A stretch of 62,786 bases of DNA, counting the filler, from Candidatus Woesearchaeota archaeon (GTDB lineage: Archaea > Nanobdellota > Nanobdellia > Woesearchaeales > GCA-2687795): the NCBI GenBank assembly GCA_030753365.1. It is 6 parts of 6 records of this genome, joined end to end, with 100 filler letters (N's around TTAATTAATTAA, not from the genome) between each part and the next. Parts side by side here need not be neighbours in the genome. Positions count along the whole stretch, not along the records: positions 48,863 to 58,250 come from JASMCJ010000021.1; 5 more parts are not named here. One strand, written 5' to 3'. Below are positions 51,001 to 57,000 of this stretch, piece after piece. The position numbers are program-made. The first letter of the stretch is position 1. Each line of letters starts with the position of its first letter.

Positions 51001-54000
51001 TTTCAAATTTGTGTAGTGTGTTGATTAGAGCTGTATTGTCCATGTTAAGAGTAGAAAGAAGTTAGAAGTTTTAAAAGCTTTTGGTATTGGATAAGTAAGA
51101 ATGCTTTTTTTGGAATATATTTTGGAAACTACAAATACTTATAATGTTATTGTTATTCTATTAAAGATTAAAAATATTAGGAGGAATTTAAATGAAAGGA
51201 AAAGTATTGATACCATTTGTAATATATGTAATGGGGATTGGGATTGTTAGTGTAACAGGTAATGAAATTAAACTTGTGTCAGAAGATGAACATAAGGCAA
51301 CTGAGCAGATGTCAAGAGTTTCTGAGGATTCAAGAACAGAATTTTCAGGAACTAAAGATGGTTATTCTTGGAAATTTATTGATTTTGGCAGGGAAGGAAA
51401 ATTGGATCTAGTTGAAGAGGGTTATGGACCTGGAAGAACTAATTCATTTGAAATGCCATATATTCTTCAATCACAACAAACTTTTTTTGATAGTGGTAAG
51501 GCAGGTGTTATAGATTATGTGGCAGACAATATTACAGATATTGTAACTGCTGATCCTTCCTCAATAACAACTTACCAATCTCCTAGGAACTCGAATAAAT
51601 CTTTCAAGATGGTGGTGCAAGGACCAAAAAGGTTAACTATACTTTAATAGGTACTCTTAAAGAAACAAATCCAGAGGATGGTAATGGAAGCTTTAGACAA
51701 GGGATATCTCTGCATTCCATTATTCCTCCTAATCGCAGTGGTTCAGAAAATCCTTTAAATGATTTTGAGATACTTATTGATATAACAAGGATAACTAAAG
51801 GACCGTCATATGATGGACTAAGAGAAATTGTGGAGTTTGTTAGGGATGAATATGAAGGAAATATTCCTACATGGGAAACTATTCTAAGAAAAGAATAATT
51901 AATTGATTCTTTTTTATTTTTAGTTAAATCTAGCTGGAAAACAAAAATCTTTATAAGCTATTGATTAATACTTTGAATATATGAAAGAGAAGCTAGAGAA
52001 ACTAAACGATTACGAATGGTTGTTGCCGAAAACAGCAAGAAAAGAGATGAAGGTAGATGCAAAAATAATTGCTAATAAAACTATATTAGATGCTATTGAA
52101 GATGATGCTGTAGAGCAATTAACAAATGTGGCAACGTTGCCTGGTGTAATAGAGCCAGTTATAGGTATGAGCGATATGCATTGGGGCTACGGCTTGCCAA
52201 TGGGGGCTGTTATGGCATTTGATAAGGAAGATGGGTTCATAAGCAGCGGTTGCACTGGCTTCGACATAAACTGTGGAATTAACTCAATAAGAACCAATTT
52301 AAGCTATAATGAAGTTAAAGATAAGTTAAAAGAATTAATTTCTGAATTGTTCAAAACTATTCCCTGCGGTGTTGGTTCTAAAGGTAAATTGAGATTAACT
52401 AATGACCAGTTAGATGAAGTTATGGTAAAGGGGGTAAACTGGGCTGTTAAGAACAATTATGGAGTTAAAGATGATATTAAAAATATGGAAGAAAATGGAT
52501 GTATGGAAGGCGCTGACCCAAACAAGGTTTCTGATTTAGCCAAGAAAAGGGGAGTTCCTCAGCTAGGAACGCTTGGTGCTGGAAATCATTTCTTGGAGAT
52601 ACAGAAAGTCTCAGAAATATTTGATAAAGAATATGCAAATAAATTAGGTATTAACAATCAAGATCAGGTTTTAATTATGTTACATTGCGGTTCAAGGGGT
52701 TTTGGGCATCAGGTTGCATCAGATTATCTGAAAATCCATGAAAAGGCTGTTGATAAGTATAATATTAAATTGCCTGACAAACAGTTAGTTGGAGCTCCTG
52801 CTAACTCTGAAGAAGGGCAGGATTATCTTAAAGCTATGAAATGCGCTGTTAATTACAGTTTTACAAACAGGCTTGTTATGACGCAATGGATAAGGGAAAC
52901 TTTTGAGAAGGTTTTTGGAAAGAGCTGGGAGGATATGGATATGCATACTGTTTATTCTATTGCTCATAATATAACTAAAATAGAAAAACATAAAGTCGAA
53001 GGCAAAGAAAAAGAGATTTATATAACCAGGAAAGGAGCAACAAGAGCATTTCCTGATATTCCTGCTTTAATTGCTGGAACTATGGGTACTGCTTCTTTTA
53101 TATGCAAAGGAACAGAAATAGCAATGGAGAAAACATTTGGCAGCACAGTACATGGAGCTGGAAGGGCGATGTCAAGGCACGCTGCTATAGATAAGTTCTG
53201 GGGCGGAGATGTCAAAAAGGAACTGGCAGAAAGAGGAATAATCGCTCAATCAACACATCCTAAAGTATTAGCTGAGGAAAGCCCTCAAGCTTACAAAAAC
53301 GTGATTGACGTAGTAGAAAGTGTACATAATGCTGGGATTTCACCTAAAGTAGTTAAATTAACTCCTATGGGAGTTTGTAAAGGTTAGTGTTTCCTTCATT
53401 GATTTATTTAGTAAATTATTTTCCAACATTTTCCTTACAGATTCTACTTCTTGTATATTAAGTTCATAATACACGGTGCCATGTCCATTTACACAGCGAT
53501 ATATTTTAGACTTAATCTTAAACAAATCATATAGATGCTTTGATAATTTCTTTAGATTATCTTCTTTTATAGAATTAAAGCGAACATAGATTGGCTTACC
53601 CCTACACAACTTAGGTTTTGCTTTTTTCTTTAACATATGTTCTATAAAATTCTTTAATTTGATTGGGCCTTCTGGAAATTTCCAAGTGTAATCAACATAA
53701 GAATTAACAATCTTAGGTAATTTCTTTCTTTTTTCACTATGGAGGAAGCCTATTTCTTTATGGAATTTGGTAAGGTCATCTTTTCCATATATTCCTAAGT
53801 AAGATATATTTCTTCCGTTTCGTTTCTTTACAATTGAATCTATGCCAAAAACCGCTTTTAGTAGACTCCGTATTTGTAATAACCCTTTATGGTTAAGGGA
53901 ATGTACTCCGATTGTTCTAGTTTGGTGAGGTCTAAATTGGAGCCAGCCTTCTGAATCAAAAAATGCTCTTAACCATAAACTTAAACCTTGTTTATCTAAA

Positions 54001-57000
54001 AATTCTATGGGAATTTCCCAATTTTCTGTATAATAAGGCTCATATTTCATTAATTTTTCATAGATTTTATTTTGGGTGCCAGAGTAACAATACAATATTT
54101 TTTTGTTTTTTACTTTTTTGATTGTTATTTTATGATTTATATCGCATAGCCTTTCAAATCTCTTCTTAAAATCTTTAACAAGAGTTAGATTTGTGTTACT
54201 AAACCTTATGCACACTTCTTTATCCCTTCCACTAATATACCCATCTCCACAAAGATATCCGTGAATTGCTGCCAAATTTTGATTAATTTTCATTTCAAAT
54301 CATCAATTTTTTCCTTAAGCTGAAGCTATGTAAATGATTTTTGTATATGATACTGAAAATCATAATTTGATAGTTGAAGCATTCTTTGAGTAATTTGAAA
54401 TAAAGAAAGGATTATCATTTAAATATCTCACGGGGGCACCTGACCAGTGACCAGTGGAAACAGGAAATGCAGAACTTCTAGGCTAGAAGCTCCATATCAA
54501 TAAAAACCACTGGACATTTAAAGTTGACCAGTGGCTAGCCTATGGGCGTCATGAAGGGTTGAGAATAGTATTAATGTCTTTCATGAGATGGAGGTTCATG
54601 GCCGAATTGTTTCCTTTTCTTTAGCTCTTTTACATGGCTTAATTTTACTTTTAAGAATTTGCCTATGCTGCCTTTGTATTTTTCAATCATTAATGAGGCA
54701 TGCTCACCTCCAAGGAAGTGGGGCAGGATTACATAGTTTGCGCCTGCATCGTATAACTGTAAGGCTTCATCTATCTGATTTGCTTTGAAGATGACGATTG
54801 CTTTCTTGTTGATTTCTTTGATTTTGTTTACCAACTGAAGGTTTACTTCTGTGTCTATGATGGTTGAGATTACCATCTTGACTTTTTCTATGTTGAGCTC
54901 TTTTAACATTTCAGTGTCGCTTGCATCGCCATATTTGCAGGGTATGTTTTCTTTTGCAAGGTTTTGGATTACGTCAGGGTTGAAGTCTACTATTAATAGT
55001 GACTTTTTCATTTTCTGTAGCTTTTTGACAAGGCTGTAGCCTGTTCTGTTATAACCAAATAGGATGACTTGATATTTTTTTGATTTGTTGTGAAGCGAGA
55101 TTTCTTCCATTTTAGTGTTTTTTCTTTCAAATATGGTAAGGTATTTTGAGAGGAAGTTGTACAAAGAATTGCCTTTGTGCATTAGATAAGTGGAACCAGT
55201 TATGGTTATTATGCCTACTACTGTGAGCATAGATACTATTTCTGATGATAAATGGCCTAAGCTTAAAGCGAGAGTGACAAGTATTAATGAAAATTCGCTT
55301 ATCTGGGCTAGTGATGTTCCTGCCAAGAAACTTGTTCGTTTTTTGTAGCCTATAAAACCTATAAGAGCCATGATAATTATTGGCTTTATGAATAAGACAA
55401 AAAGGGATAGGACTACAGCAAGTATGAGAAGATTGGAAATGTTGAAGGTCATGTTAGAGCCTAGCATTACAAAGAAAAGGATTATGAAAAAGTCATGCAA
55501 TGGCCGGATTTTTCTTCCAATTTCATAATGGAAAGGAGATGACGCAAGGCTTATGCCTGCAATTAGAGAACCGATTTCTATTGAGAAGCCTAATAAGTAT
55601 GAGGTTACAGAGAGTACAAAGCACCAGGTTATGCCAAATAGAAGCAAAAGTTCCTGGGATTTTGCAATGGTGTGAAGGAATTTTGGGAGAATATATTTAG
55701 CGACAAGGAATACGACAAAGACAAAACCTAATCCTCTTAAGACGGTTGTAGTAAGGAGAATGAATATTGGTATGTTTGGTTTGTAGCCTGACAGGAAAAT
55801 TAGTATAAGAATGGCTATGATGTCCTGAACTATTAGAATTCCAACAGATATTCTTCCATAGAGGGTGTCTAAGTCGTTTTTGTCGTAGAGTATTTTTACT
55901 ATGATGATTGTGCTGCTGAAAGCTAAGGCAAGGCCGATGTAGAACGCCTGAATATATGATAAGCCAAAGAGCGTGGTGATGAAGAAACCGAGAATGGAAG
56001 TGATTAAGACTTGAAGAAAGCCTGCTAAGAAGGCTACTTTGCCTACTTCTTTTAGGATTTTAAGGTTGAGGTTGAGACCTAGGATGAATAGAAGCAGTAT
56101 GACGCCCATTTGAGAGAAGGCTGCTAGAGTGCTGTGAGATTTTACTATGTTAAGAAAGGTTGGGCCTACTACTATTCCGCTTAGAATGTAGGCTATGATG
56201 AGAGGTTGTCTGATTAGCTTCATTATGTAAGCTAATACTAATGCAATTGCGATGACAGTGGTGAGTTCTAGGAAGATTGATTGCATTTTAGGATTTTAAC
56301 TGGTTTATTACTTCTAAAAGAAATAGGAAACCTGTTACACCTCTTTTTTTATAGCTCATTCTATGCATAGTGTAGTTTACTGAGGATTAGATATATAAAA
56401 CTTCTCTTTGGATGAAGCAGTTATACTTCAATGACTTTCCCTTCTCTACCAACATTAATAACTTTTGTTCCGCCTAGCTTTTCTTCAATGCCTTCTGCTT
56501 CATGTACATGAGAACATAGTAATATGTCTGGCTTGAATTTGTCTATTGCTTTTTTTACGCCTGATGAACCGGGAAAGATTTTGGTGAACTTTTCCATGAT
56601 TGATTCATTTGGATGGACATGGGTTATCATGACTTTTTTGGGTGAGTTTTTTACGCCTTCAAAGCCTTTCTTGAGAGATTTGAAGATTTCTTCTTCGCTT
56701 AACTGGAAGAGGCCGATGTTTGCTCCGCCGCAGCCAAATAAGCCTACATCTTTGTATTTTATATAGTAGCCGTGAAGGTTTCTTACATCATAGAGTTCTG
56801 CAAGGAAATCTGCGGTTGCTATTGTTTCATGGTTGCCTGGGATGAGTACTACCTTTTTTTTGTTTTTTACAAAGGGTCCTATTATATTAGAAGTTGAACT
56901 TTCTCCCTGTGTTAAATCGCCGCATAGAATTACTAAGTCTACGTTTTCTTTTTTTGCCTTTTCTGCAAGTTTTTTTGCAAGGCCTGTGTCTCCATGGATG

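Follow-up and report, generated by a model that had tools for sequence, protein, structure and literature searches.

What is a nuclease gene doing at the end of an RNA ligase gene? In Candidatus Woesearchaeota archaeon GCA_030753365.1 (hereafter G000), the window, i.e. the whole stretch of 62,786 nucleotides analysed here, contains g321, a stand-alone LAGLIDADG gene that is convergent with rtcB and overlaps its 3' end by 30 nt (Table 1). The first-pass annotation correctly placed this overlap at the end of an intact rtcB, and regarded g321 as a free-standing homing endonuclease dedicated to rtcB, which it took to be interrupted by a short hairpin in every genome with an orthologue. Rfam and ARAGORN scans around the locus gave no match. 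Among contigs from four DNA runs there is no joint that skips g321, and one contig spans the whole stretch and may be its source. The 850-bp stretch between pheS and rtcB is missing from G001, a genome of the same genus.

Table 1. Features of the g321–rtcB and g272–metK loci of G000, with positions counted along the window
Feature	Position	Strand	Remark
g272, two-domain protein of a different LAGLIDADG family	36594..37418	+	overlaps start of metK
metK, intact	37387-38556		
850-bp stretch with 151-aa ORF, pheS–rtcB interval	51088..51936	+	Pfam: no match
rtcB, RNA ligase, 468 aa, uninterrupted	51981..53387	+	PF01139, E 4.9e-155
rtcB codons 63-73 (M-S-D-M-H-W-G-Y-G-L-P)	52167..52199	+	family's predicted target region
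G-F-D-I-N-C motif of rtcB	52257..52274	+	inteins and further micro-introns at this site in relatives; empty in G000
H-G-A-G-R of RtcB, guanylylated (catalytic) histidine, residue 391	53151..53165	+	
g321, stand-alone LAGLIDADG protein, 311 aa	53358..54293	-	PF14528 and PF03161
Third, family-specific domain of g321, about residues 203-300	53394..53687	-	
Glu115, acidic residue in motif 2 (A-F-F-D-S-E-G) of g321	53949..53951	-	
Asp17, acidic residue in LAGLIDADG motif 1 (G-Y-L-C-G-D-G) of g321	54243..54245	-	
Imperfect inverted repeat, g321 leader	54326..54377	-	common to 10 other nuclease leaders of 33 listed
TATA-like box of g321	54417..54426	-	
Tandem CACTGG(T/A)C box, upstream of TATA box	54440..54457 (C21:5578-5595)	-	

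The nuclease family and its neighbour

Among 400 genomes of the same order, 13 full-length orthologues and one cut by a contig end were found, and all 14 adjoin rtcB. The same holds for two GTDB loci, for nine of nine family carriers belonging to a second order and for 76 of 80 loci from metagenomes, where the four exceptions stop at contig edges; the earlier claim that all orthologues lie next to rtcB is thus upheld and extended. None of the weaker LAGLIDADG loci adjoins rtcB (0/16 in each of two sets). The nuclease–rtcB neighbourhoods come in three layouts, the common one having the nuclease upstream, and the archease–rtcB pair is split by the nuclease in 30 of 57 tandem loci. Carriers, dispersed among families, number 17 of 379 and 9 of 111 genomes. 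Of 14 strong splits among the nucleases, 6 contradict strong splits of RtcB. In G170, a decayed nuclease remnant lies next to an rtcB intron.

Members are stand-alone proteins of 275–311 aa, and none lies within an intron or intein at the loci read. An acidic residue is present at both LAGLIDADG motifs in all 85 distinct nucleases, mean column identity is 53%, and every family-invariant residue is retained in g321. Other LAGLIDADG proteins align only to family positions 1–200. The third domain resembles domain 2 minus its catalytic helix (hhalign probability 89%, E 2e-6) and is predicted to be an extra DNA-reading domain. With its three domains, the LAGLIDADG scaffold that the family offers is predicted to read some 30 bp; an ESM Atlas search with this domain gave a best score of 0.85, a lead only. 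Sequence matches connect the family to intein endonucleases (PDB 1dq3 and 7qss, best E 1e-7). An escape from an rtcB intein was considered and rejected, as full-length members all stand alone and the intein proteins match no more than the first two domains, and these weakly. A viral origin was likewise rejected: 18 candidate stretches in IMG/VR yielded a single weak match of 29 residues, and no viral relative of the nuclease was found there.

A second nuclease, g272, was said always to precede metK. Indeed, g272 and its one orthologue among 200 relatives (56% identical) both lie directly upstream of metK, but this amounts to two genomes only, and no intron, stub or promoter copy was found at these loci.

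Probable micro-introns in the rtcB of relatives

In relatives, rtcB carries inserts of 24–35 nt, a wider range than the 27–31 nt first reported, with bulge-helix-bulge (BHB) geometry, at three points that lie inside the D-x-H-x-G-Y-G motif and span 7 nt. In the 44 interrupted alleles these points map after positions 52181, 52183 and 52188 of the G000 gene, itself free of introns. The site had been described as the catalytic-histidine motif, which does not hold: the D-x-H histidine is residue 67, and the guanylylated one is residue 391, in H-G-A-G-R, 324 codons 3' of the intron motif; we take it to be the counterpart of human H428. In the human enzyme, H428 is the guanylylated catalytic histidine (PMC10944509).

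In all 44 distinct interrupted alleles the best-pairing of 13 splice registers restores both D-x-H-x-G-Y-G and the reading frame, with four alleles tied. The predicted cuts fall after the second base of 3-nt bulges, with a 4-bp helix between them and an intron helix closing the structure; most His-site alleles have 2–3 bp only. The central helix of the inserts covaries, and instead of a canonical exon–exon helix behind a clean 3-nt 3' bulge, the folds give an internal loop, the relaxed form. Intron-bearing rtcB is likely mis-called as a pseudogene in these genomes.

Inserts occur in 12 of 17 same-order carriers of the nuclease against at least 10 of 362 non-carriers, a lower bound because the search pattern needs G-F/L-P. 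In the second order they occur in 7 of 9 carriers against at least 6 of 73 non-carriers, again a lower bound because the pattern misses Tyr-codon inserts, with 29 nuclease-free genomes giving no match. Within genera g105, g50 and g165, the intron is confined to the nuclease carrier. Nevertheless, rtcB is not interrupted in every genome with an orthologue, as had been stated: the motif is uninterrupted in 5 of the 17 same-order carriers and in the rtcB partners of 50 of 77 distinct nucleases, the intron being present in 27 of 77. One may argue that the nuclease-like protein is a maturase that aids splicing of the rtcB intron, since the two co-occur far above background and LAGLIDADG proteins sometimes act as maturases, as a passage of PMC3984707 states. 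This is highly improbable, given the 50 intron-less partners, the 16 intron alleles without an adjoining nuclease, and the fit of hairpins this short to the host splicing endonuclease (PF01974), which G000 and all five of the intron carriers tested possess.

Searches of the openly searchable literature turned up no account of introns in rtcB, nor of a free-standing nuclease tied to that gene; those within 10.64898/2026.05.13.725050, PMC12397907 and PMC8784108 likewise gave nothing. Micrarchaeota genome papers may mention introns in protein genes.

The intron motif as the predicted target

The proposal that this is a free-standing homing endonuclease dedicated to rtcB, with its target at the intron site, gains support from promoter copies, stubs and a co-conversion gradient, all read from sequence comparison. 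Of 83 nuclease promoters, 50 hold a degenerate copy of the rtcB motif that scores beyond the 99th percentile of shuffles, always on the sense strand and, in 47 of the 50, 44–63 nt ahead of the nuclease start. About 42 of these copies come from one clade, and a single copy occurs in G402 and in G336. The right-hand end of the copy could be no more than the BRE, as its CATAAG also stands ahead of the metK nuclease's TATA box in G166. Promoters do not repeat the right half of the proposed target, which scores above the 95th percentile in 1 of 83. Orphan rtcB 5' stubs lie upstream of the nuclease at 23 of 102 loci (E<0.05), and that of G379 stops exactly at the motif (P-D-G-H-W-G), without an intron and unlike the downstream allele. 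In addition, across 31 loci the nuclease is tracked by RtcB residues 1–122, with partial rho of 0.51 and 0.39, but not by residues 121–242 (0.02 and 0.19). The consensus codons, which were defined post hoc, are kept in 4 of 50 intron-less partners (and also in contig-cut G137) against 69 of 129 and 32 of 67 nuclease-free alleles; naive P values overstate this difference, because of that post hoc definition, because about half of the nuclease-free alleles depart from the consensus (60/129; 35/67), and because the partners are clustered in few clades.

The family is outside introns and inteins, fixed beside one conserved gene, patchy, laterally mobile and accompanied by co-conversion of its flank, which are the properties of a free-standing homing endonuclease. 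We consider it likely that the nuclease is a homing endonuclease; it is predicted to cut unprotected rtcB at the M/L-P-D-x-H-x-G-Y-G-F/L-P codons, and repair would copy the nuclease together with a protected piece of rtcB. A domesticated, WhiA-like regulator of the rtcB operon, one that attaches to the motif and to its own promoter but cuts neither, would also explain the constant linkage to one gene, the promoter copy of a binding site, the extra predicted DNA-binding domain and the good conservation of the family (53% mean column identity). Such a regulator is improbable, however, given how few and scattered the carriers are (17/379 and 9/111 genomes), the acidic catalytic residues retained in 85 of 85 proteins, the stubs of broken rtcB, the chimeric rtcB genes, and the 6 of 14 strong nuclease splits at odds with RtcB. 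Neither loss of catalytic residues nor stable vertical presence, as expected of that class, was observed, and a profile search gave no WhiA/DUF199 match for g321.

How does G000 fit a homing family? Neither a promoter copy nor an rtcB stub was found in it, and because the intron is absent as well, its target is deduced from relatives 37–52% identical and may have shifted. That g321 persists without the intron, as first remarked, is true but not special, since 50 of 77 partners are intron-less, mostly with altered motif codons. The G000 allele has S and M where most nuclease-free alleles have P and A/G, and this S-D-M-H allele is predicted to be immune to the nuclease. With the nuclease downstream and no intron, stub or promoter copy, we infer that G000 represents an intronless-homing state. 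Its rtcB and nuclease were probably acquired from another order: G000 RtcB is sister to that of G401, which belongs to another order (bootstrap 100), rather than grouping with its own genus, and the pair is nested with two further genomes of G401's order (bootstrap 99), whereas G000 PheS is 45% identical to that of G401 vs 82% to that of G001. Identity between the G000 and G401 rtcB genes is even over the whole gene (72–76%), as expected if everything between cut and nuclease was co-converted.

It is also conceivable, though unlikely, that homing is true of the family while the G000/G401 nucleases aim elsewhere, at the 3' end of rtcB or the intein site for instance, or that g321 is a passenger of the transferred rtcB, inactive on the motif. 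Its convergent position downstream, 1.2 kb from the motif, would suit this, as would the lack of promoter copy, stub and intron, the separate branch that the G000 and G401 nucleases form with insertions in domain 1, and the occurrence of the same S-D-M-H allele in G404, where the nuclease is absent. On the other hand, g321 retains all family-invariant residues, G453 has the convergent layout of G000 and yet an intron within the motif, the even rtcB identity is what whole-gene co-conversion predicts, and nuclease-free G001 of the same genus has the consensus P-D-A-H allele.

The box at C21:5579, first called SOS-like, is real and has five further promoter-like sites. All six in G000 lie ahead of TATA-like boxes, at the radA operon, two integrases, g321, an HNH-repeat gene and one site without a long ORF, so that recombination and repair genes share it at a fixed promoter position; its likeness to SOS is only a resemblance in gene content (radA operon, two integrases). 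None of the 83 nucleases has both a promoter copy and the box.

Proposed mechanism and comparison with known systems

In the homing model that we favour, the nuclease would cut an unprotected rtcB, and repair templated by the carrier would bring in the nuclease gene along with the protected rtcB piece, the carrier's own gene being protected by an intron (27/77) or by changed codons (46 of 50 intron-less alleles). In the upstream layout, a cassette of promoter copy, nuclease and new rtcB start would land inside the resident rtcB, leaving the resident start as a stub and fusing the incoming start with the 3' portion of the resident gene. The promoter copy would be a bound but uncut operator, allowing autorepression as for I-TevI, and box-type carriers such as G000 would use a host promoter box common with radA. 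The host splicing endonuclease would cut out the introns and RtcB itself would do the resealing, so that in cells with the intron RtcB would be needed for its own production. It is quite possible, although we stop just short of favouring it, that all this reflects an arms race in DPANN archaea for a single essential coding motif, in which the nuclease carries a replacement rtcB start, represses itself via a target copy, and selects for and spreads tRNA-type micro-introns as armour. If so, here would be the means, missing until now, by which BHB introns of archaeal mRNA that lack an ORF move about, and the dependence of an RNA ligase on splicing its own message would be a feedback loop made by a parasite. 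With 44 interrupted alleles, an adjoining nuclease and a target readable from promoters, the origin and spread of BHB mRNA introns become testable with synthetic DNA.

Gene-specific free-standing homing in archaea was put forward as new; the variant is, but the principle is known from phages as collaborative and intronless homing. In collaborative (trans) homing, as outlined in parts of PMC3984707 and PMC2988022, a free-standing endonuclease such as T4 mobE is paired with a group I intron that lacks an ORF. Similarly, the rtcB-family nuclease gene lies outside the intron, beside a conserved gene that in many relatives of G000 has an ORF-less intron at the inferred target. In contrast, it resides on a cellular archaeal chromosome, has a predicted LAGLIDADG fold and no viral relative found in IMG/VR, and there are three intron points in one site. 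Because its partner is a 24–35 nt BHB hairpin, predicted to be spliced by proteins, and not a self-splicing group I intron, the family would work like the phage system but is not that system. The T4 Seg/Mob endonucleases, which a section of PMC2988022 treats under intronless homing, share with it a cut site (here predicted) hundreds of bases from the nuclease gene and predicted protection of the own allele through changes in its sequence, the G000 state; unlike there, in the common rtcB layout the target gene's start would be exchanged and a stub left behind, and transfer between archaeal orders is seen. I-TevI, according to the same section, represses itself at an operator resembling its homing site, and rtcB-family promoters likewise overlap a degenerate copy of the inferred target. 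Here, however, the enzyme is LAGLIDADG rather than GIY-YIG, the copy is a protein-coding motif in codon register, and G000 has a host box instead.

The intron itself is best compared with that of cbf5 pre-mRNA in Desulfurococcales and Sulfolobales, a relaxed BHB of 16–44 nt, too short for nuclease coding and of an origin left open in the portion of PMC2738675 concerned; a passage of a 2020 paper names it as the only earlier BHB intron in archaeal mRNA (PMC7714728). The rtcB inserts, known here from genes alone, are also short relaxed BHBs that interrupt a conserved motif in the gene of an RNA-processing enzyme and leave no room for a nuclease, but they have several independent points, are patchy within genera and tied to an adjoining nuclease, and interrupt the gene of the very ligase needed for splicing. 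Finally, the rtcB family has two motifs per chain like the LAGLIDADG enzymes of archaeal rRNA BHB introns and inteins (PI-PfuI-type; 1dq3, 7qss), and differs from them in being stand-alone, 275–311 aa long and endowed with a third domain.

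The nuclease family and its linkage to rtcB

The product of g321, a stand-alone LAGLIDADG gene, has two LAGLIDADG motifs, whose acidic residues are D17 and E115, plus a third domain of ~100 residues. This domain aligns to domain 2 but lacks the catalytic helix (hhalign 89%, E 2e-6). In a search of 1.84 billion representatives, ~17 full-length clusters (275-311 aa) match the family end to end, and the match of inteins and other LAGLIDADG proteins is confined to its first ~200 positions. The closest named record comes from a Nanoarchaeota genome, and a search for a viral relative found none. 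Acidic residues at both motifs are kept in 85/85 distinct nucleases.

The first-pass annotation held that g321 overlaps the end of rtcB, the RNA ligase gene, that its orthologues all lie beside rtcB, and that a second nuclease gene, g272, always precedes metK; the searches agree with all three. A full-length orthologue occurs in 13 of 400 genomes from the order of the studied genome, G000 (order 1), and a contig-cut one in G137; each of these 14 adjoins rtcB, as do both GTDB loci. The same is true of 9/9 in the order of G401 (order 2), where 9/111 genomes have the nuclease, and rtcB neighbours none of the weaker LAGLIDADG loci (0/16 in each order). Among 80 metagenome loci retained from 338 confirmed stretches (two from the studied species, one matching G401), 76 contain rtcB and the remaining four end <150 bases from the nuclease stop. 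The 85 distinct nucleases lie upstream in tandem (69), divergently (11), downstream and convergent like g321 (3) or in unknown layout (2), and 30 of the 57 tandem loci with sufficient flank place the nuclease between archease and rtcB.

Features of the stretch, and sites of the box (tandem CACTGG(T/A)C promoter element) by contig of G000
Feature	Position	Strand	Remarks
Stretch ahead of rtcB	51088-51936		151-aa ORF, no Pfam hit; absent in G001; studied species only among loci compared
rtcB	51981-53387	+	intact
g321	53358-54293	-	convergent with rtcB, 30-nt overlap
Imperfect inverted repeat	54326-54377		conserved in nuclease leaders; box and TATA within its loop in G197, G111, G371
g272	36594-37418		different, two-domain LAGLIDADG family; directly before metK
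Box sites	C8:58252, C13:524, C21:5595, C44:377, C58:3569, C69:23218

Only one of 200 relatives, G166, has a g272 orthologue (on C13, 56%), likewise directly before metK and under the box. metK is uninterrupted in both genomes (T-I-G-H-P-D in G166, T-E-G-H-P-D in G000), and the placement is suggestive of a metK-dedicated nuclease. Weaker g272-like genes lie directly ahead of pth2 in two genomes, and in G001 one converges on an iscU-like gene (G075:C58, G035:C25, G001:C38); they may represent more gene-dedicated families. In 19/30 loci of two-domain LAGLIDADG relatives (L015-L030, L220-L235), a tRNA gene lies no more than 1.5 kb away; at L022, a tRNA-Tyr called by ARAGORN has an intron of 822 nt that encompasses the nuclease. 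G000 itself has a two-domain gene near tRNA-Met (C75:2597-3298) and a gyrA-like frame with apparent intein sequence and a LAGLIDADG domain, read by eye (C25:1-1980).

Inserts in the rtcB motif

We collected 44 distinct rtcB alleles interrupted at the motif D-x-H-x-G-Y-G by inserts of 24-35 nt. The three insertion points lie no more than 7 nt apart: behind the His codon (14 alleles), within the next codon (6) and within the Tyr codon (24). The best-pairing bulge-helix-bulge (BHB) register of 13 tried restores the motif in 44/44 alleles, with 4 ties, and the central helix varies on both sides (UAGG/CCUG, AAGG/CCUU, UUGG/CCAG, GGGG/CCCU; GGUC/GACA, GGCC/GGCA). The exon side folds as an internal loop, the relaxed BHB form likewise reported for the cbf5 intron (PMC2738675). 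G000 and 5/5 tested intron carriers have a gene for the splicing endonuclease, and we infer that the inserts are spliced out of the rtcB message.

The Asp of the motif presumably contacts the catalytic His. The motif itself had been called the catalytic-histidine motif, which it is not: its His, residue 67 in G000 RtcB, is, going by PMC10944509, neither a metal ligand nor the guanylylated His (H391 in G000).

Further hairpin inserts of 12-31 nt occur at several points of the G-G-I-G-F/Y-D-I-N-C motif (matching 52245-52270) in G111, G347, G286, G189, G250, L160, L197 and L206, all alleles already with a first intron. rtcB is an intein hotspot too, at the site matching 52271/52272 (single open frame of 969-1018 aa in 23/30 selected genomes, L088-L111); one checked relative carries, at D-I-N|C, an intein that includes a LAGLIDADG domain, and G104 has both intein and intron.

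In order 1, where 379/401 genomes have an rtcB match (15 flagged unpublished), the intron is present in 12/17 nuclease genomes versus at least 10/362 others. The 17 comprise 14 full-length nucleases including G000 (intron in 10/14), the contig-cut G137 and G104, and a remnant in G170; absence was judged by one protein query, with a profile check at 12 intron loci. In order 2, the figures are 7/9 versus at least 6/73 others with a pattern match, both backgrounds being lower bounds owing to pattern limits (29 nuclease-free order-2 genomes lack a match). Within genera, the intron is found only in the carrier in three comparisons (G300 vs G105, G190, G251; G161 vs G050; G336 vs G193, G302, G398). 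The pairing is not strict, as 16 intron alleles lack a nearby nuclease. The earlier claim that relatives' rtcB is interrupted beside the nuclease stands for most carriers in the two orders but not for the family, since 50 of 77 distinct nucleases with a readable motif have an intron-less partner, and the intron-less state of G000 is therefore the common one.

The motif as the predicted target

In 50 of 83 nuclease leaders, ~42 of them from one clade, the match to the left part of the motif exceeds the 99th percentile of shuffles. Each of the 50 copies is on the sense strand, and 47 lie 44-63 nt before the start, directly ahead of the TATA box. In codon register they keep the invariant T of the M/L codon, CC, a free wobble, GAT and CA; at the x codon, Ala never occurs and Gly occurs once. 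Those of four lineages outside the main clade approximate M-P-D-F-H-V-G, M-P-D-I-H-Y-G, V-P-D-R-H-P-G and M-P-D-K-H-W. The copy is single in G402 and G336, and the right end of the copies may be a BRE. I-TevI represses itself through an operator resembling its target (PMC2988022).

An orphan rtcB start precedes the nuclease in 23/102 loci (14/85 distinct, one at E 0.3) and abuts the promoter copy in all but one. That of G379 extends to P-D-G-H-W-G without an intron and differs mostly synonymously from the intron-bearing downstream allele; this stub reads as a resident rtcB allele broken at the motif.

Across 31 main-clade tandem loci, the identity of RtcB residues 1-62 and 61-122 correlates with that of the nuclease once the 3' part is removed (partial rho 0.51, 0.39), whereas that of 121-182 and 181-242 does not (0.02, 0.19); all 47 tandem loci give a weaker contrast (0.36, 0.34, 0.08, 0.28). 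Of 14 strong nuclease splits, six conflict with strong RtcB splits and three are common to both. The consensus D-A/G-H...G-F/L-P is kept by 4/50 intron-less versus 23/27 intron-bearing partners and by 69/129 and 32/67 alleles without nuclease (hand counts), a post hoc and clade-clumped contrast. Among same-genus pairs, G000 vs G001 and G236 vs G072 bear it out and G137 vs G002 does not. G-Y-G-A-C-I-G is frequent in nuclease-adjacent rtcB of a metagenome clade (L133-L184) and accounts for 0/131 and 0/79 motif matches in the two genome samples; no nuclease-free allele with this variant turned up, and no further search was made for one.

Conclusions are independent of unpublished genomes: G315, the sole Glu/Glu variant, is among the 13 orthologues, the 5 intron-less order-1 carriers and the 4 consensus intron-less partners, and G112, G121 and G132 contribute three alleles to the background of 129.

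Origin of g321 and comparison with known systems

In G001, of the same genus (PheS 82%), the gene order is pheS-rtcB-two transporters-kef, the allele is P-D-A-H and the nuclease is missing; in G000, an extra 850-bp stretch precedes rtcB and g321 follows it. G401, with PheS at 45%, has an RtcB 78-80% identical to that of G000, and a single 2-kb block spanning rtcB and nuclease is common to the two. A tree of 36 sequences over RtcB residues 100-468 (drawn from the clade most like G000 plus three outgroups) pairs G000 with G401 as sisters (bootstrap 100), nested with order-2 G404 and G455 (99) and apart from G001. rtcB and g321 thus most likely came together from order 2, with an S-D-M-H allele.

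Neither stub nor promoter copy was found in G000, where g321 has the box ahead of its TATA box in place of the copy; among 83 leaders, 16 have the box, 50 the copy and none both. Of the five other G000 boxes, four precede genes (the radA operon, two tyrosine integrases and an HNH-repeat gene) and the fifth lies at a site that lacks a long ORF. With that of g321 they mark out a candidate recombination regulon, in which joint expression of g321 and RadA would fit with homing.

That nuclease genes can be free-standing is already acknowledged (PMC6125680), and our searches of the openly available literature found no report of rtcB introns or an rtcB-linked nuclease family. In 2020, cbf5 was named as the sole earlier BHB intron in archaeal mRNA (PMC7714728), and the rtcB inserts are of the same kind. 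The action of the nuclease would resemble phage homing of the collaborative and intronless types (PMC3984707, PMC2988022), although the collaborative type calls for a group I intron, which the rtcB inserts are not. It would be a variant of known homing, with an unusually readable target.
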